Assembly: GCA_048884945.1 (NCBI GenBank)
Contig: JBHLQJ010000001.1
Coordinates: 26,977-67,277, forward strand
From: Candidatus Thorarchaeota archaeon
Lineage (GTDB): Archaea; Asgardarchaeota; Thorarchaeia; Thorarchaeales; Thorarchaeaceae
DNA: 40,301 nt
Direction: 5' to 3'
The notes beneath the pieces are model-generated. The model did no database searches and had not been told where the DNA came from. It saw nothing but the letters and a program-made list of their open reading frames with translations. A program made the position numbers and the translations under genes. Position 1 is the first letter of the stretch. The number at the start of each line of letters is the position of its first letter. Below are positions 3,278 through 40,301 of the stretch, in pieces.

Positions 3278-4081
3278 CTATGGTTGAATCCTTGTGCAAA
3301 TTGTTGATTCATTTTGCAACAGAGATTTCAGACGATTAGGGATTGTCAGATTGAAAATAATGATTTCTCTATCAGGTCTTGTAATTTCAAGGAGCTCGCT
3401 TACTTTTTTTGTCATTCCCCCAGTAACATCGGTACTTATTGATGGTCCTACTTTAGATAGAACAACCTTCTTGTTTTCTTGGTTTATTATAGGAATATGT
3501 TTGGCTGATGGGTTATCTTTTGGATTATCGTCTAAAACTCCATCAACGTCAGTCCCAATAAGTATGGATTTCGCATTCAATTGCTCTGCAAGGTATACTG
3601 CTATTGTATCACCACTAAGAATAGACGCAGTGTGAACTTCATCAAAGCAAACATCTCCGTGGGTTACTACAACAAGTCCATTATCCAATGACTTTCTAAA
3701 GATAGTAGTTGGAAATTCATGTATCAGACCATTTCTGAGGATTACTGAACAGAATGGTGGAAGTACAATAGCCGGGATTCCTACTTTGTTTAGAATAGAT
3801 TCAATATATGTTGCTAGTGTTGACATATTGTGACGTATTGGTGGAATACCTTTCAAGAGAAGTTCTTTGGGACTTTTAGAGTCAGCAAACCCATAAAGAT
3901 GAGCGGCTTGGTGACCATGGGCACCACCGCCTAGAACAATGATTAACTCTCCTCTATAGTCTTGGAGTTCATGAGCAATTCGGTCTAAGTTTGCTTCATT
4001 AACTCTTGGAGGAGATGAAGATTTGTAGGTTATAACTGATCCACCTAATTTTACAATTGTAAGAGATTTCAATTGTATCAC
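3278..4081 (-). CDS. ipk: isopentenyl phosphate kinase (amino-acid-kinase fold, archaeal mevalonate pathway)
   Basis: The motifs 'KLGGSVIT', 'GGGAHGH', 'GTDVDGV' and 'DVTGGM' match archaeal IPK. The protein is 267 aa and convergent with the ATPase gene. Confidence 0.8.
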   Translation of the reverse strand: MIQLKSLTIVKLGGSVITYKSSSPPRVNEANLDRIAHELQDYRGELIIVLGGGAHGHQAAHLYGFADSKSPKELLLKGIPPIRHNMSTLATYIESILNKVGIPAIVLPPFCSVILRNGLIHEFPTTIFRKSLDNGLVVVTHGDVCFDEVHTASILSGDTIAVYLAEQLNAKSILIGTDVDGVLDDNPKDNPSAKHIPIINQENKKVVLSKVGPSISTDVTGGMTKKVSELLEITRPDREIIIFNLTIPNRLKSLLQNESTICTRIQP

Positions 4082-4215
4082 ATATATCAGGGGATATGTG
4101 GTGCTTATGGACGTTGCTTTCTTTCGATGTAAAATATGTCACACACAAGACAAGCTTTTTATCCGGTTCAGATTTGGAAGCTTTGGACACCTCGCCTGTA
4201 TTGAGGGATTCTTAA

Positions 4216-4527
4216 ATGACACAAAGAGCAAGAATCAGATTATCTAGCACAAGTACTGAACACCTAGATGGTGTGTGTAACCAAATTAAGAGAATTACAC
4301 GCAAGACGGGTGTCCGAATGGCAGGTCCTATTCCTTTGCCAACACGTAGAATGGTTATACCTACAAGAAAGACTCCTTGTGGTCAAGGCTCCGAGTCTTG
4401 GGATAAGTGGGAGATGAGAGTCCACAAACGACTAATCGATATTGATGCAGATGAAAGAGCCATTCGTCAAATAATGCGTGTACGAATTCCAGACTCTGTA
4501 TATATTGAAATTGAATTAACTGGTTAA
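4216..4527 (+). CDS. rps10: 30S ribosomal protein uS10
   Basis: The 103-aa protein has 'ARIRLSS...LD.VC.QI' and 'GPIPLPTR...HKRLIDI' as in S10. Confidence 0.9.
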
Positions 4528-4597
4528 TTTTCACTTACACAAACCCTTTTTGCGCGATTCTACAAGATACTTCTATTGCACATGAGGTATCTCAGAG

Positions 4598-6421
4598 ATG
4601 TGTGGTATAATTGCTGTAGTACAAGAACGTGGTACTGTTGCTCCATTCCTGCATCAAGCGTTAAAGCGTCTTGAATATCGTGGGTATGATTCAGTTGGAG
4701 TGACAACCATTGCTAATAATGTGCTATATACAAAAAAAGACAAGGGAAAGATTGAGGAAGTTCACAAAAGACTCAATCTTGATGAAATGCCAGGACTAAT
4801 TGGAATTGGGCATACTCGATGGGCTACTCATGGTGCTCCATCTATGATAAATGCACATCCACATTTTGATTGTGAAAATAAAATCGCGGTCGTTCACAAT
4901 GGAGTAATTGATAATTTTATGGAGTTAAGAAAAGAGCTGAGCGAAAAAGGGCATAGATTCAGTTCTGAAACTGATACGGAAATTATCCCACATATGATTG
5001 AGGATTTCATGAAAGATGGATTGGATTTAACAGGTGCTATCAAGGAAGTCACTAAACGAATTGAAGGAACATATGCCATCGTGGCTATGGCAACTAATGA
5101 AGGCAATAAGATTGTATGTACACGTGATGGGAACCCTTTAGTCATAGGAACAAAGTCTGGAGCTTCGTATGTTTCTTCTGATATTCCTGCATTTTTACCA
5201 ATGACTAATGATATGATTCTCCTGCTTGATGGAGAGATTGCTAGCTTAACAACTGAAGGTATTTGTATTGAAAGATTGATTGATGGCGCGACTATAGATC
5301 GTGAAACGATTAAGATTAGTTGGACAGCCGATCAGGCACAGAAAAGTGGATACCCCCATTTTATGTTAAAAGAAATACATGAACAGCCTGATGCTATTAA
5401 AAACACACTTAGACTTCGGTCAGAAAATATTGAGAAAGCTGCAGGCATAATCAAAAATTCTGAAAATGTGTATATGTTAGCAATGGGTACCTCTGGACAT
5501 GCTGCCCAGGCTGGGCGACATATGTTTGCATCACTTGCAGGTGTACTCCCATCTTTTGAACTAGCTAGTGATTTTCCAGATACAGTATATGGTGCGTTGT
5601 CAGAAAGGGATTGTATTATTGCAATCACACAATCAGGTGAAACAACTGATACTATTACTGCAGTTAAATATGCGAAAAAGTATGGAGTAAAGATAATTGC
5701 AATCACTAATGTTGTTGGAAGCTCGATAACTCGTCTTGCGGATCATACAGTCATTACACAGGCTGGACCAGAGATTGGTGTCGCTGCAACAAAAACCTTC
5801 ATGGTTCAACTTACTTCTTTAGCTTTGATTGCTTTGGCACTTGCTGAAATGACAAATTTCAGAGAATCTAGAGAAATTAAAAGAAAGAGAGATTCCTTGG
5901 AGAAATTACCTGAACTTATCTCAGAAGTCATCTCAAGAAATGAGGAAAGGTCTCGAAGACTAGCTTCAATACTTTATGAAAGACCAAGTCTTCTTTTCTT
6001 GGGCAGAGGTATTTCAATGGCTACCGCTGAAGAAGGAGCACTCAAGCTTAAAGAAGTGGCATACAATCATGCAGAAGCATATTCTGCAGGGGAATCGAAA
6101 CATGGCCCCATCGCACTAGTTCAGGATAATTATCCTGTCATATTTGTGGCTCCGTCTGATGAAACTAGAAATCGTATTGTTGGTAATATTATGGAAATGA
6201 AGGCAAGAGGTGCAACAATCATATCTGTGATTCAAAAAGATGACGAAGAAATTATGGGTTTATCTGATTATGTTTTTATAATTCCGGAAAGATTAGAACC
6301 TGAATTTTCTATAATGTCATATATTGTACCCTTGCAGTTGTTCAGTTATTATATGGCTTTGAGAAAAGGATACGATCCAGACAAGCCAAGGAACTTAGCA
6401 AAGTCAGTCACAGTTCTTTAG
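4598..6421 (+). CDS. glmS: glutamine--fructose-6-phosphate aminotransferase (isomerizing)
   Basis: It has an N-terminal 'MCGI' Ntn-amidotransferase nucleophile, two SIS domains and a C-terminal 'KPRNLAKSVTV'. Length is 607 aa. Confidence 0.9.
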   Translation: MCGIIAVVQERGTVAPFLHQALKRLEYRGYDSVGVTTIANNVLYTKKDKGKIEEVHKRLNLDEMPGLIGIGHTRWATHGAPSMINAHPHFDCENKIAVVHNGVIDNFMELRKELSEKGHRFSSETDTEIIPHMIEDFMKDGLDLTGAIKEVTKRIEGTYAIVAMATNEGNKIVCTRDGNPLVIGTKSGASYVSSDIPAFLPMTNDMILLLDGEIASLTTEGICIERLIDGATIDRETIKISWTADQAQKSGYPHFMLKEIHEQPDAIKNTLRLRSENIEKAAGIIKNSENVYMLAMGTSGHAAQAGRHMFASLAGVLPSFELASDFPDTVYGALSERDCIIAITQSGETTDTITAVKYAKKYGVKIIAITNVVGSSITRLADHTVITQAGPEIGVAATKTFMVQLTSLALIALALAEMTNFRESREIKRKRDSLEKLPELISEVISRNEERSRRLASILYERPSLLFLGRGISMATAEEGALKLKEVAYNHAEAYSAGESKHGPIALVQDNYPVIFVAPSDETRNRIVGNIMEMKARGATIISVIQKDDEEIMGLSDYVFIIPERLEPEFSIMSYIVPLQLFSYYMALRKGYDPDKPRNLAKSVTVL

Positions 6422-30917: not shown

Positions 30918-30954
30918 GCAACTTTTTATTGTGTCGACAAACCCATCTCTTTTG

Positions 30955-31008
30955 GGGGCGGTAGTCTAGCCCGGCTATGATGTCTCGTTTACACCGAGAA
31001 GGTCGCTG
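30955..31008 (+). pseudogene. truncated tRNA-Val(UAC) fragment (positions 1-52), intron-less
   Basis: The fragment is GGGGCGGTAGTCTAGCCCGGCTATGATGTCTCGTTTACACCGAGAAGGTCGCTG. Its first 46 nt are identical to the 5' part of the full gene at 32645-32600. The next 8 nt match the exon 2 start across the intron. It lacks the rest of the T-arm and the acceptor 3' strand. A TTTTTATT box lies ~25 nt upstream. Confidence 0.75.
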
Positions 31009-31078
31009 CGAATGTATGAACTTATAGCGCATCTTTCATCATTAATTATTGATGGTAGACATTCTTGGGGTATGATAT

Positions 31079-32557
31079 GTGGAAAGAAGACGATATTCCC
31101 GTTCTGAAAGGATCAAGGAAACCGAAGAAACTGACGAAATCAAAGATGAAGAAATAGCCAGAGAGATTGTCAGAGAAGTCGAATTAGTAATAAGAATGAA
31201 ACATGCTTTGGAGAAACTCGAGTCATCAGAAGCTGAATCCGAACCAGAGAAAGTGCCGCTTGACACAAAAAAGGATACAATACACCGAATGTACTTCGAG
31301 GAAGGAAAAACACATTCAGAAATTGCAGAAGAGCTCGGATACGAATCTACAAAACCACTTCAACGGGTCTTTCGTGAAGAAGGATGGGAAGCAAGAGCTG
31401 GGAAAGTAACTGAAATTGAGGATGATGTACATAGGCTGTACTTTGATGAGGGATTATCTCAAAGAGAAGTAGCTGAGGAACTTGGATTAAAATCAGTGAA
31501 GGCTGTAAGAAGGGTTTTCGAGGAACAAGGATGGGAAACGCGTCCCAAAAGAAACCTAGAGTTGGAAAATCAAGCTCGTGAACTGTATTTTGATGAAGAA
31601 CTGACACAGTCAGAGGTAGCCGAAGAACTTGGAATGTCGACAAAGTGGGTTCAGGATGTTTTCAAACGAAATGAATGGGAGGTTCGTTCTCGAAAGATAG
31701 AGGGAATTGAGGATGAAGTCTTTCATTTATACTTCGAAGAGAAACTTACTCAAGAAGAAGTAGCCAAAAAAATGGAACTCTCAAAGGACACAATTCTCCG
31801 AGTGTTTGAAGAGATGGAATGGGAATCACGAGAACCTCGCCGCGGAGTAACAATGAGGACCTTTGAAACTGAAGAAGAGCAGCTTGAAGCTAGAAGAGAA
31901 CATAGACAAGCAACCTATGAGAAAATCAAAGAGCTTAGAGAGGAACTTTTTGGATCAGAGTGTAGAATCTGTCATGCTGATAATGGAACACGTAAGTCAT
32001 TCATACACAAGAAAGATGGTACTGAGCACGAGGACATCAACCTATGGAGTTTGAGAGATTTAGAAAAGATTGAACCAGATGAATGGCGTCGATTGTGTAC
32101 CGCTTGTCACAGAGGCTCACATTGGATGATGGATGAACTTGGTATGGACTGGAGTGAAATTGAATCACTTAGAAAAATAGCTGTAGAAGATACAGAACTA
32201 GAAAACCAATACCGTGAAGGAACAATAACTCTTGACAAAAGTCGCAGGAGTTTTGAGAATGAGAATCTCAGTGTTGAAGACATTAGGAGAGAATTATTCG
32301 GAAACGAGTGTTCTGTATGTAACCAGTCTGAAGTTGAAAAGCGATTGATAATTCACAACAAAGCAGGACTATCCCATGATCGTCACTTTCTTTGGACGAA
32401 GGAAAACCTGAATTCAATCGATCCAGAGGAGTGGATAGTGCTATGCAGAAAATGTCACAGACATGTTCATTGGTCGATGAATAAACTAAGACTTTCTTGG
32501 GAATCAATTGAATCAAGACTTGTAGAATCAAGCGATGGTGGGGCGGGCCGGATTTGA
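31079..32557 (+). CDS. modular DNA-binding/nuclease-like protein: 4 tandem HTH repeats + 2 HNH-like (CxxC...H...CxxCH..H) modules
   Basis: Four ~45-aa repeats ('..YF(E/D)E.L(S/T)Q.EVAEELG......RVFEE.GWE.R') span aa ~65-253. Two ~80-aa repeats carry 'EC.(I/V)C...IH(K/N)K...N(L)...C..CHR..HW' at aa ~285-365 and ~402-480. The last 22 nt run antisense over the tRNA-Val 3' end. Confidence 0.65.
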   Translation: MERRRYSRSERIKETEETDEIKDEEIAREIVREVELVIRMKHALEKLESSEAESEPEKVPLDTKKDTIHRMYFEEGKTHSEIAEELGYESTKPLQRVFREEGWEARAGKVTEIEDDVHRLYFDEGLSQREVAEELGLKSVKAVRRVFEEQGWETRPKRNLELENQARELYFDEELTQSEVAEELGMSTKWVQDVFKRNEWEVRSRKIEGIEDEVFHLYFEEKLTQEEVAKKMELSKDTILRVFEEMEWESREPRRGVTMRTFETEEEQLEARREHRQATYEKIKELREELFGSECRICHADNGTRKSFIHKKDGTEHEDINLWSLRDLEKIEPDEWRRLCTACHRGSHWMMDELGMDWSEIESLRKIAVEDTELENQYREGTITLDKSRRSFENENLSVEDIRRELFGNECSVCNQSEVEKRLIIHNKAGLSHDRHFLWTKENLNSIDPEEWIVLCRKCHRHVHWSMNKLRLSWESIESRLVESSDGGAGRI

Positions 32558-32645
32558 ACCAGCGACCCTCGAGACCAAGAAGCACAGAGCTTCAGTGGTT
32601 TCTCGGTGTAAACGAGACATCATAGCCGGGCTAGACTACCGCCCC
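32536..32645 (-). tRNA. tRNA-Val(UAC) with ~32-nt intron in the variable loop (after position 44), CCA encoded
   Basis: A cloverleaf can be drawn with acceptor GGGGCGG/CCGCCCC, anticodon stem TCTCG/CGAGA, loop TTTACAC and T-arm GCTGG-TTCAAAT-CCGGC. The segment ACCACTGAAGCTCTGTGCTTCTTGGTCTCGAG interrupts A44/G45 and forms its own hairpin. Confidence 0.85.
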
Positions 32646-32699
32646 GATAGATTAGACCTGATATCTGTCGATTAAAAACATTATCGAAGTGGATGAGGA

Positions 32700-33014
32700 C
32701 TATACAGGTATTTTTCTAATCCTCTCATCCACTTCGTGTTCAAGCTCTATAATTATCTGAGCAACTCTTTTTCCAAAATGGTTCAATTCGTAGTATGAGT
32801 AAGAACCCTCATTGGTTCTTTCAAATACATTTACAATTAATCCAATTGAATCAAAGAATTTCAAATCTCTTGCAAGTGTCGTGCTGCTTATGTTGCTTTT
32901 CTTCTTTAGTTTACTAAATGGTATCTTATCTTTGTAAAGATCCATCAGTATCCCACGTTGTCTTTTGTTCTCCAAGAGGTGTAGTATTACTTCTTTTACG
33001 TCCCACTCACTCAT
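32700..33014 (-). CDS. small winged-helix transcriptional regulator (HxlR/ArsR/MarR-like)
   Basis: The 104-aa protein has 'FSKLKKKSNISSTTLARDLKFFDSIGLIV....EGSYSYYELN', which fits an HTH plus wing. Confidence 0.6.
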   Translation of the reverse strand: MSEWDVKEVILHLLENKRQRGILMDLYKDKIPFSKLKKKSNISSTTLARDLKFFDSIGLIVNVFERTNEGSYSYYELNHFGKRVAQIIIELEHEVDERIRKIPV

Positions 33015-33150
33015 TGGCTTGTATCCTCCTCGGAAGCGCTAATCTTCTATTGGTATCATATTTATTATAGTATGGTACTACTTAAAGGTTACTAGGATGG
33101 CAATTACAAACAATTATATAACTTAGTAATATATATGTAACCTAATAACA

Positions 33151-33172
33151 CTTTGTTAAATTAATAACAAAG
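33151..33172. promoter_or_regulatory. inverted repeat CTTTGTTA-N6-TAACAAAG (candidate operator)
   Basis: Perfect 8-bp arms lie in the divergent spacer between the wHTH gene and ORF 33195. TAATAACA is also directly repeated at 33144 and 33162. Confidence 0.3.
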
Positions 33173-33194
33173 ATACGCCGGGAGGACATAAATA

Positions 33195-33779
33195 TTGGTA
33201 GAACTGCGAAAGAAACCACGCAAAATTCGTGGTAGAGTTGAAATGCCAAGAGAAACATGGAATACAAAGGCAGTTACATTTGAGAACAATGTAAACAGAC
33301 ACATGAAAAATATTAGAGTCCTCTTACTCGGTCCTGGTTTTCCCGAAGGTCAGCTGGAAATCCGTACTCAAGTGGCAGAGGAACTTCAGAGAGCTGGGTG
33401 CGATATATATATCATGGAAACGATGGGCCCAATCAGTTCTTTCAACATTGATGAGAAGTTTTGTGACATTTTGAATGAAATTCGTCCCGAACTAATCATT
33501 TGCATATTCACAAAGGAAGGAGCTCCTCATGGTGTGATTTTTGAAATTGGATTCATTTGTGGACACTACGGAATTGAGCAAGCTTTGAATTACCTTCGAT
33601 TTTGTTTTCACAATGAGCTAAAAAAGATTCAAGAAATCCCTGCTTATCTACAGTTTCTAATCTCAAGAACACGCTACTATGAATTCTATGATGAAGATGA
33701 AGGTCCAACACTCTTTGACCGAATCATCCAATACATTCGAGATGAGGTCGTCAGACAATATTGTCCCACTGATTTATAA
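33195..33779 (+). CDS. hypothetical protein, nucleoside 2-deoxyribosyltransferase-like / Rossmann-like fold (tentative)
   Basis: 'RVLLLGPGF' and 'HGVIFEIGFICGHYG' resemble the 'YLAGP.F' and 'D.GT.FE.G.A' motifs of the NDT-like superfamily. The start is uncertain (TTG 33195, ATG 33243 or ATG 33303). Confidence 0.4.
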   Translation: MVELRKKPRKIRGRVEMPRETWNTKAVTFENNVNRHMKNIRVLLLGPGFPEGQLEIRTQVAEELQRAGCDIYIMETMGPISSFNIDEKFCDILNEIRPELIICIFTKEGAPHGVIFEIGFICGHYGIEQALNYLRFCFHNELKKIQEIPAYLQFLISRTRYYEFYDEDEGPTLFDRIIQYIRDEVVRQYCPTDL

Positions 33780-33905: not shown

Positions 33906-34027
33906 GCGGGAGTAGCCAAGCCCGGTCAAAGGCGGCGGACTTAAGATCGCATGAGATTAAGGGGTCATGTGAATAGGCTATCCGCTCTCGTAGGAGTTCG
34001 TGGGTTCGAAGCCCACCTCCCGCACCA
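33906..34027 (+). tRNA. tRNA-Leu(UAA) with canonical 37/38 intron (~34 nt), long variable arm, CCA encoded
   Basis: It has acceptor GCGGGAG/CTCCCGC, anticodon stem GCGGA/TCCGC, loop CTTAAG[intron]A, variable arm TCTCGTAGGAGTTC and T-arm GTGGG-TTCGAAG-CCCAC. The intron lies at about 33946-33979. Confidence 0.9.
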
Positions 34028-40224: not shown

Positions 40225-40300
40225 TGGAGCCCCAGGCGAGATTTGAACTCGCGACCTGCTGATTACAAGTCAGCCGCTATAGCCTCTAAGCCACTGGGGC
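40225..40300 (-). tRNA. tRNA-Thr(UGU), no intron, CCA encoded
   Basis: The minus strand reads GCCCCAGTGGCTTAGAGGCTATAGCGGCTGACTTGTAATCAGCAGGTCGCGAGTTCAAATCTCGCCTGGGGCTCCA. The anticodon loop is CTTGTAA. Confidence 0.9.
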
Positions 40301-40301
40301 A

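Follow-up and report, generated by a model that had tools for sequence, protein, structure and literature searches.

An interrupted tRNA-Val(UAC) gene, an intron-less tRNA fragment and an HTH/HNH-like gene between them in a thorarchaeotal genome

Heavy non-canonical interruption of tRNA genes has already been described in Asgard archaea (bioRxiv 10.64898/2026.10.13.758758), two EndA paralogues were found in 44 of 60 Asgard genomes (PMC11291895; census preprint 10.64898/2026.10.13.758758), and the 2026 census treats the route by which such introns arrive and spread as a central open problem (10.64898/2026.10.13.758758). Similar introns in the Thermoproteales, Caldiarchaeum and Thaumarchaeota (PMC3293823; PMC4090602) are, like the one described here, short, protein-spliced and placed in the variable loop, outside the 37/38 position; they likewise have a bulge-helix-bulge motif, in part relaxed, that is built partly from exon sequence, and their hosts have a two-subunit EndA. 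In the tRNA-Thr(GGU) of C. subterraneum, the intron lies at 45/46 (PMC3293823). The present case differs from these in its 44/45 position, in affecting a tRNA-Val, in its Asgard host and in a 5′ bulge of 2 nt, and its splicing is predicted from DNA. It shares with the introns already recorded in the same phylum (PMC11291895; 10.64898/2026.10.13.758758) the presence of two EndA paralogues in the host and the fact that many are missed by standard tRNA finders (ARAGORN finds only 27 tRNAs in this assembly), but here a nuclease-like gene and a leftover tRNA fragment lie directly beside the intron-bearing tRNA. An earlier note on this DNA had linked introns at such positions to a limited set of archaeal lineages; the host is an Asgard archaeon and belongs to a group for which they are already documented, and the remark needs updating to that extent.

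The wider arrangement also has described counterparts. In the C. subterraneum locus tRNA-Thr-F / 1.87-kb insertion / tRNA-Thr-II (Sugahara et al. 2012, PMC3293823), as in ours, a 5′ tRNA fragment without intron is followed, within about 1.6-1.9 kb holding one ORF of a DNA-binding or recombination type, by a complete tRNA gene with intron; the intron lies inside the duplicated part, and the insertion is polymorphic among close relatives. The C. subterraneum ORF is a predicted recombinase, whereas the protein here carries four HTH repeats and two HNH-like modules (the two are set apart by their domain descriptions), and, unlike in C. subterraneum, the complete tRNA is inverted in the window and the protein family recurs at no fewer than five different tRNA species. 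Free-standing homing endonucleases beside their targets, namely T4 SegB in a tRNA cluster (PMC2330249), MobE (PMC2790892) and F-CphI at psbA (PMC6083498), resemble the present gene in being small, patchily distributed and multi-copy, in joining modular DNA-binding repeats to a nuclease-like domain, in always adjoining one conserved gene class and in the co-travel of the flanking promoter and the 5′ part of the gene. Unlike them, the gene described here resides in cellular archaeal chromosomes rather than in phages and its nuclease fold is suggested by weak profile matches; unlike in clean homing, its insertion leaves behind a duplicated 5′ gene fragment.

The window, that is, the whole stretch of 40,301 nucleotides that was analysed, contains these features within about 1.8 kb (Table 1). 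The Rfam model RF00005 matches positions 32539-32645 of the minus strand at 49.7 bits (E 7.4e-8; gathering score 29), and the alignment covers all 71 model positions with a single insertion of 33 nt, in the variable region. When the intron, ACCACTGAAGCTCTGTGCTTCTTGGTCTCGAG (32568-32599), is deleted, the remaining 78-nt sequence is folded by ARAGORN without intron mode into a standard tRNA-Val(UAC) with the variable loop AGGUC; excision between A44 and G45, as the earlier note had proposed, is borne out. In its uncut form, the gene is missed by ARAGORN without intron mode, and with the option -i it is called as tRNA-Val(tac) with the intron misplaced into the anticodon loop. The interrupted gene is confirmed as real: it occurs in each of the 24 further genomes that were sampled from the genus, which places it far beyond chance. 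Most genera of the family, and also a second family (L028), carry an insert at the 44/45 site, and across 25 genomes of the genus the exons are nearly invariant, the intron sequence is variable and its length stays at 31-33 nt.

Table 1 Features of the tRNA-Val(UAC) locus, in positions of the window.
Feature	Positions	Strand	Evidence or remark
Promoter region of the ancestral tRNA-Val ('Phost', GTAAGCAACTTTTTATTG type)	30920..30954	+	Comparison of upstream sequences
Intron-less 5′ fragment of tRNA-Val(UAC), nucleotides 1-52	30955..31008	+	Exact 54-nt prefix of the spliced tRNA
ORF of 492 aa, HTH/HNH-like	31079..32557	+	Last codons overlap the tRNA 3′ end
tRNA-Val(UAC) gene	32536..32645	-	110 nt including intron and encoded CCA; Rfam RF00005, ARAGORN -i
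Exon 2, nucleotides 45-73 plus CCA	32536..32567	-	Rfam alignment and ARAGORN fold of the spliced sequence
Intron, 32 nt, between nucleotides 44 and 45	32568..32599	-	Excision restores the cloverleaf
Exon 1, tRNA nucleotides 1-44, 46 nt	32600..32645	-	Near-invariant in 25 genomes of the genus
Region upstream of the functional gene ('Pe'), inferred promoter	32646..32700	-	Contains the TATA-like TTTTTAAT
TATA-like TTTTTAAT	32671-32678	-	About 26-33 nt before the tRNA start; read from the sequence

In the unconstrained minimum-free-energy fold, the intron forms its own hairpin (ACCA/UGGU plus GAAGC/GCUUC) and its UCUCG makes a helix with the anticodon stem's 3′ strand (CGAGA/UCUCG; C39-A43). Both elements had been read from the sequence in the earlier note, as had a relaxed bulge-helix-bulge site, and such a site can be modelled at the intron borders, with 4/4 pairs in the central helix, a 3′ bulge AG|G, an outer helix of 2 bp and predicted cuts after the second nucleotide of each bulge. 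The motif is relaxed because the 5′ bulge of the window's gene has 2 nt, not 3, and because 18 of 25 relatives have a G-A mismatch in place of the fourth pair of the central helix; two genomes (G015 and G017) show the strict form at the same borders, namely a 4-bp helix between bulges of 3 nt each. When constrained, the bulge-helix-bulge conformer is slightly less stable than the cloverleaf plus hairpin (-30.5 vs -33.5 kcal/mol), and the computed minimum, -44.1 kcal/mol, is far below either. The proposed pairs covary: 89.9% of cells were paired vs at most 49% when partners were slid, and 36 cells had changed on both sides vs 13 +/- 2.8 in shuffles, as illustrated by pair 58-64, for which 12 sequences have C-G and 10 have U-A. 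The intron's UCG, opposite C39-A41, is invariant.

The splice border is also given independently by the intron-less fragment. There, the first 8 nt of exon 2 (GGTCGCTG) directly adjoin the exon 1 sequence, giving the junction GAGAA|GGTCGCTG, and exon 1 itself pairs with 30955-31000 as a perfect 46-nt inverted repeat; the presence of an intron-free DNA copy only 1.6 kb away thus defines the junction unusually well, and the earlier note's appeal to this fragment holds (Table 1). If the fragment had arisen through microhomology, by loss of the DNA between the GAG repeats of the two intron borders, it would read CCGAGGGTC; CCGAGAAGGTC is observed, and this origin was rejected.

Not touched on in the earlier note are the inverted orientation of the fragment, its ancestral position and the nuclease-like gene between the two copies. 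The fragment is inverted relative to the functional gene, lies at the ancestral tRNA site and holds the position, strand and upstream flank of the complete gene in 24 relatives. Wherever the nuclease-like gene is absent from a relative within the genus, sequence of the Phost type precedes the intact tRNA-Val. The Pe stretch, by its sequence the probable promoter of the functional gene, has a core, ATAATGTTTTTAATC.ACA, in common with the promoter that in seven other assemblies separates tRNA-Val from the nuclease-like gene; upstream matches of Pe type in two further genomes (G042 and G023) were rejected as chance extensions of a Phost-type promoter. The two copies are direct repeats in the seven other assemblies, and only in the window's genome is the functional one inverted. 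A simple flip of the inverted repeat from the direct arrangement is excluded, as the inversion covers only a unit of ~165 nt, promoter plus tRNA, the edges of which yielded no repeats. In G005, a candidate decayed inverted tRNA-Val beside a Pe-like stretch scored 21 vs 17.2 +/- 3.2 in shuffles, which is not significant.

The 492-aa protein consists of four HTH repeats of about 49 aa followed by two HNH-like zinc modules, in both of which CxxC...HxKDGxxH...CxxCHxxxH is invariant. Its HTH part matches Sigma70_r4 and other HTH families, and an NCBIfam search returned HTH families only; the C-terminal half matches PHROG 'HNH endonuclease' families at 6e-7 to 1e-5 and Pfam HNH only at 0.07, and no PDB match was found, either with the sequence of this half or with a profile of 11 homologues. 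We refer to the protein as a putative nuclease, with a possible HNH fold suggested by weak profile matches. Its distribution is patchy. At the Val-UAC locus, the gene is present here and on the contigs of all six close homologues found (P0002-P0007), and it is absent from 24 relatives of the genus; at the Thr-UGU locus, it is present in G006 and absent in G005 and G011, with flanks otherwise collinear, and at this tRNA-Thr locus the insertion of the cassette coincides with the arrival of the intron. Matches to the protein (1-10 per genome) occur in 15 of 28 genomes of the genus, the gene is found in 16 of 43 genomes of the family and in 0 of 157 sampled from the rest of the phylum, and relatives of the protein adjoin intron-bearing tRNA genes at 13 of 18 loci. 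The cassette is small and apparently mobile. Elements of the SSV or pNOB8 type combine a tyrosine recombinase with direct repeats of a tRNA att site at both ends. An integrase-mediated element of this type was rejected: the 1.6 kb that separate the tRNA copies gave no match to an integrase family, and the repeats are inverted here, though direct in seven assemblies.

The genome also encodes the enzymes that removal of the intron would call for. The earlier note had tied such an intron to a broad-specificity splicing endonuclease that should be visible in the subunit architecture of EndA, and two EndA paralogues are present, both of which have an N and a C domain: one is catalytic (among solved structures it matches the A. 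pernix alpha subunit best, at E 2.8e-46, with Y/H/K aligned) and the other lacks the catalytic His, an (alpha-beta)2 layout that agrees with the note's expectation. An RtcB-type ligase is found in the same genome (PF01139, 586 bits). The (alpha-beta)2 layout of EndA is linked to a broad substrate range, and enzymes of the (alpha-beta)2 or epsilon2 type accept non-canonical introns. Such a range can be predicted for the present pair from its type, and removal of an intron with a 2-nt 5′ bulge would depend on it.

Taken as a whole, the locus is very probably a functional tRNA-Val(UAC) gene with an EndA-type 32-nt intron between nucleotides 44 and 45, and it forms the downstream member of a duplicated pair made by the cassette. 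The insert is an ordinary non-canonical archaeal tRNA intron of a kind already known. Transcription of the precursor would start from the TATA-like box, which lies some 30 nt upstream. Its intron would mimic the 5′ strand of the anticodon stem (UCUCG, as in nucleotides 27-31) and displace it, so that CUCG in the 3′ segment of the intron would pair with C39-G42 to form the 4-bp central helix. On one side, this helix would be flanked by the 3-nt bulge A-G|G45, with C38-G46 and A37-U47 as its closing pairs, and on the other by an A-rich bulge (A43 A44|A), beyond which the intron would form its own hairpin. The (alpha-beta)2 endonuclease would cut once in each bulge, the exons would be joined by RtcB and the anticodon stem would re-form, yielding a 75-nt class I tRNA with the variable loop AGGUC, plus CCA. 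The duplicated pair would have arisen when the cassette with the HTH/HNH-like protein entered an ancestral tRNA-Val near nucleotide 52-55.

An alternative interpretation is that the 32 nt are retained in the mature tRNA as an oversized, class II-like variable arm, as might be thought from their place in the variable region and their folding into a hairpin, but we consider this extremely improbable. Class II tRNAs are those for Leu and Ser (or bacterial Tyr) and keep a conserved arm of 10-20 nt in the mature tRNA, whereas valine tRNAs belong to class I; here, the anticodon is UAC (Val), and the 32-nt insert drifts freely in sequence, unlike a functional arm, and pairs with the anticodon stem. 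Indeed, the only invariant bases of the intron pair with that stem and not within an arm, the strict bulge-helix-bulge of G015 and G017 lies at these very borders, and a 5-nt loop AGGUC is found both in the uninterrupted tRNA-Val(UAC) of another family of the phylum (L032) and, exactly, in the intron-less fragment. There is likewise very little to recommend the view that the gene is a decaying pseudogene, with GUA decoded by another copy or by another tRNA-Val. The locus is rearranged and bears a cassette, the gene is inverted compared with its relatives, and a second, uninterrupted tRNA-Val(UAC) could lie outside an assembly that is 81% complete; however, no other tRNA-Val(UAC) copy was found in this assembly, the encoded CCA (32538-32536) and the discriminator A73 are intact, as is the TATA-like box, the acceptor stem has undergone compensatory swaps from G-C to C-G, and strong purifying selection acts on the exons over > 60 genomes, while the insert varies.

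A different question is what the intron does beside the cassette. By analogy with 'collaborative homing', in which an intron acts together with a free-standing endonuclease, it might be mainly protective, interrupting the recognition site of the putative HNH-like protein and so sparing the functional copy from cleavage. At Val-UAC, Val-CAC and Thr-UGU, the leftover copy upstream is without the intron and the functional copy has it, and at all three loci the duplicated segment takes in the site of the intron, 3-25 nt short of where the fragment ends, as this interpretation would have it. In one assembly (L078), however, an intron is present in the upstream fragment itself, together with a different acceptor stem, which means that the cassette there entered a resident gene that already bore an intron, and throughout the family the intron also occurs in genomes without the gene. 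Protection is thus an unlikely main role, and on account of L078 we downgraded immunity through the intron as the principal reading. Somewhat better placed, although we offer it only tentatively, is the possibility that the HTH/HNH-like gene is a selfish tRNA-targeting element that carries a promoter and an intron-bearing 5′ replacement, the intron staying behind after loss of the gene. Insertion would truncate an intron-less resident gene and leave the fragment, the functional gene would from then on bear the intron, and the nuclease gene would later be lost, either through deletion or through recombination in the duplicated exon 1, with the intron remaining.

With the tRNA-Val(UAC) gene, an Asgard lineage gains one more well-supported non-canonical tRNA intron, of a sort that standard finders miss or misplace. 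The context of the locus is more interesting than the intron itself, and it hints at how such introns spread: an intron-free remnant, a nuclease-like gene and an intron-bearing functional copy form a natural before-and-after record, and further tRNA genes of the family repeat this pattern, which makes the entry of archaeal tRNA introns into genes testable. If true, the selfish-element reading would provide a concrete path for the arrival and spread of non-canonical tRNA introns among Asgard archaea.

The earlier note held that the tRNA-Val cloverleaf closes only once about 32 nt are removed between A44 and G45, and both the size and the place of the insert were borne out. The Rfam tRNA model matched 32645..32539 at 49.7 bits (E 7.4e-8; gathering score 29), with 71 of 71 model positions placed and a single 33-nt insertion in the variable region; a discriminator A is followed by an encoded CCA, and the anticodon loop, UUUACAC, gives the anticodon UAC (Val). 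ARAGORN, which had been suggested as a check, was of partial help: its default mode missed the gene in the window, and with introns allowed it called a 110-nt tRNA-Val(tac) but forced the intron into the anticodon loop. Once the intron is excised, the 78 nt that remain give, in ARAGORN, a standard tRNA-Val(UAC) fold whose variable loop is the 5-nt AGGUC, a loop likewise found in the uninterrupted tRNA-Val(UAC) of another family in the same phylum. A search of the window for the spliced junction returned one further site, 30982-31009 (+), which belongs to the nearby intron-less fragment. This fragment reads through the junction as had been claimed, and its first 46 nt are repeated perfectly, in inverted orientation, at 32600-32645. 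The junction is unambiguous, since GAGAA-GGUC can be obtained from no other combination of cut sites.

Features of the tRNA-Val locus and its surroundings in the window
Feature	Position	Strand	Description
Fragment of tRNA-Val(UAC)	30955-31008	+	Exact 54-nt prefix of the spliced tRNA: nucleotides 1-44, then GGTCGCTG
HTH/HNH-like ORF, 492 aa	31079-32557		Four ~49-aa HTH repeats, then a two-copy module
tRNA-Val(UAC) gene	32536-32645	minus	Rfam tRNA model and ARAGORN
Intron	32568-32599	minus	ACCACUGAAGCUCUGUGCUUCUUGGUCUCGAG on the RNA strand; excision restores the tRNA fold
HxlR-like gene and 194-aa ORF	32700-33779		Insertion missing from most relatives (compared with L047, a locus of genome G005, 3758-5208)
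tRNA-Leu(UAA)	33906-34024	+	Rfam 43.4 bits; canonically placed intron of ~37 nt, variable arm of normal class II type
tRNA-Thr(UGU)	40225-40300		Uninterrupted

The 110-nt gene, intron included, is present in all 24 other sampled genomes of the genus (79-95% identity) and in most genera of the family; in a genome of a second family, a 34-nt insert occupies the same place and, as in the window, has a 3' segment that copies the anticodon stem's 5' strand in that tRNA. Across a 25-sequence alignment the exons are near-invariant, with changes solely at acceptor pairs 4-69 and 7-66, where G-C is exchanged for C-G in compensated fashion, and the intron is 31-33 nt long and variable in sequence. The precursor fold tested here comprises a hairpin internal to the intron, a central helix of C39-G42 with intron CUCG, and an outer helix of C38-G46 and A37-U47. 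It paired 89.9% of alignment cells, compared with 29-49% when the 3' partners were slid by 1-3 columns, and showed two-sided changes in 36 cells, compared with 13 +/- 2.8 in shuffles. Intron U-C-G opposite C39-G40-A41 is invariant and the remainder of the intron drifts. If each bulge is cut after its second nucleotide, the cuts are predicted to fall exactly between 44 and intron position i1 and between i32 and 45. The 3' site of the window gene is canonical (4-bp helix, bulge AGG cut after AG, 2-bp outer helix) and in its 5' bulge only two nucleotides are free, in line with the relaxed bulge-helix-bulge that had been proposed; the fourth central pair is G-A in 18 relatives, and two genomes (G015 and G017) have the strict motif of two 3-nt bulges flanking 4 bp. 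The other two elements described from the sequence already appear in the unconstrained minimum-free-energy fold: the intron's own hairpin, in which pair 58-64 covaries (C-G in 12 sequences, U-A in 10), and the pairing of the intron's 3' part with the 3' strand of the anticodon stem (CGAGA/UCUCG). Because cloverleaf plus hairpin is more stable, by 3 kcal/mol, than the conformer constrained to the bulge-helix-bulge, the two conformers must interconvert, the usual situation with non-canonical introns.

The window's genome encodes two paralogues of the tRNA splicing endonuclease EndA, both of which combine an N-terminal domain with one of catalytic type. The 187-aa protein gave a 2.8e-46 match to the Aeropyrum pernix EndA alpha subunit, which is the catalytic one, and aligns with it at Tyr, His and Lys; the 233-aa paralogue is missing the His at the catalytic position, which gives a predicted (alpha-beta)2 layout. 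EndA subunit architecture had been named as a check, and PMC5829648 gives (alpha-beta)2 and epsilon2 enzymes as the types that cleave non-canonical introns. RtcB, the type of RNA ligase that joins exons, is also encoded. The nearest named records are MAGs labelled Candidatus Hermodarchaeota, Promethearchaeota and Thorarchaeota, which places the host among the Asgard archaea. In that phylum, tRNA genes heavily interrupted by non-canonical introns that often escape annotation have been described, as have two EndA paralogues (10.64898/2026.10.13.758758; PMC11291895). With introns allowed, ARAGORN found only 27 tRNA genes in this 2.7-Mb, 81%-complete assembly, 15 of them intron-bearing, and many others are probably hidden by non-canonical introns. 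The variable-loop intron of tRNA-Val is thus ordinary for its phylum, and the earlier note's observation and interpretation are correct, with splicing predicted from DNA.

Relatives share the order TFIIE-alpha, DUF2110, S4-domain methyltransferase, tRNA-Val, tRNA-Leu(UAA), GDT1, GatD and GatE, with an intron-bearing tRNA-Val on the same strand as its neighbours. In the window, the fragment holds the position, strand and upstream sequence (GTAAGCAACTTTTTATTG type) of the ancestral tRNA-Val and is followed by the 492-aa ORF and then, on the opposite strand, by the complete tRNA-Val, whose upstream sequence differs (ATAATGTTTTTAATC type). The HTH repeats of the ORF match Sigma70_r4 and many other HTH families, and both copies of its module carry an invariant CxxC...HxKDGxxH...CxxCHxxxH. 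The half of the protein that carries these modules hit PHROG families of phage 'HNH endonuclease' (6e-7 to 1e-5) but reached only 0.07 against Pfam HNH and had no PDB match, so the protein is a putative nuclease. Beside this unit, the inverted tRNA-Val adjoins the HxlR-like islet; in G005 the left edge of the islet is instead a T-loop-truncated 5' fragment of tRNA-Leu(UAA) that retains the canonical intron, with a complete tRNA-Leu downstream, and this fragment is absent in the window.

For each of the six close homologues found, contigs place the orthologous ORF (62-78% identity) at this same tRNA-Val locus. Contigs with both copies carry fragment, ORF, second promoter and complete tRNA-Val on one strand; the ~165-nt promoter-plus-tRNA unit is inverted only in the window genome. 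At this locus the fragments stop at nucleotides 52-55, and in six of the seven lineages they lack the intron. The exception, locus L078, has a fragment that differs from the downstream copy in both intron allele and acceptor stem; its cassette entered a resident gene that already bore an intron. Since, on the protein tree, L078 is nested within lineages whose fragments lack an intron (support 85/91), the intron-less fragment is probably the older state. Two metagenomes encode the same ORF protein (L072 and L073). L072 has lost most of its tRNA-Val fragment along with the promoter, so that GTAAGCAAC runs straight into ACCGAGAAGGTCGCTGG; the upstream remnant therefore decays after the downstream copy takes over.

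More distant homologues (30-40% identity) are patchy and multi-copy, occurring in 15 of 28 genus genomes; among the genomes sampled, 16 of 43 from the family and none of 157 from the rest of the phylum yielded the double HNH-like module. Of 18 further loci, 13 have a non-canonically interrupted tRNA gene, on either strand, no more than about 200 nt from the ORF stop (Val-CAC 3, Val-GAC 3, Glu-UUC 2, Asp-GUC 2, Thr-UGU 2, other 1), and two more have a tRNA just upstream of the ORF. Intron-less 5' fragments precede the ORF at Val-CAC (G012, G009) and Thr-UGU (G006), and in every case the functional copy has its intron within the duplicated segment. Another kind of leftover fragment is seen at L068 and L069 (G015:C22, G188:C53), where a complete intron-bearing tRNA-Val(GAC) adjoins the ORF homologue and a 24-nt tRNA-Val 5' piece with a different acceptor stem lies ~25 nt upstream on the same strand. 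Two contigs of G015 break exactly at the 46-nt tRNA-Val exon 1, and position 40301 of the window is the end of its contig (G000:C1:67277), 1 nt upstream of the start of tRNA-Thr(UGU); such tRNA 5' segments look like points at which the assembly branches, which would be expected of sequence that is repeated or polymorphic in the population.

The tRNA-Thr(UGU) locus bears on the origin of the introns. In the comparison with loci L081 and L083-L096, the gene is uninterrupted in about ten genus relatives as well as the window genome, and about 15 others have a 31-nt D-arm intron. In G005 and G011 the uninterrupted gene stands at a locus without the ORF; with collinear flanks, G006 has the ancestral promoter and intron-less nucleotides 1-28, the ORF, a second promoter and a complete gene with the 31-nt intron. 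The homologous intron occurs without an ORF in fourteen further genomes: eleven of these have the ancestral promoter, and in the other three (G016, G043 and G010) a cassette-type promoter lies directly behind the upstream host gene; the tRNA-Val(UAC) of G219 similarly has a cassette-type promoter without the ORF. These states fit a cassette that brings a promoter and an intron-bearing 5' part and whose ORF is later lost, but they fit equally well a cassette that acquired this promoter/intron module from a lineage where the module is native. A close parallel to the fragment/ORF/intron-copy pattern is the Caldiarchaeum tRNA-Thr locus, where an extra intron is carried by an inserted 1.87-kb element (PMC3293823). 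The tRNA-Val locus records a recurrent tRNA-gene-associated cassette, which we tentatively, and at less than even confidence, suggest may be a vehicle for intron gain, with the direction of events presumed from the compared loci.
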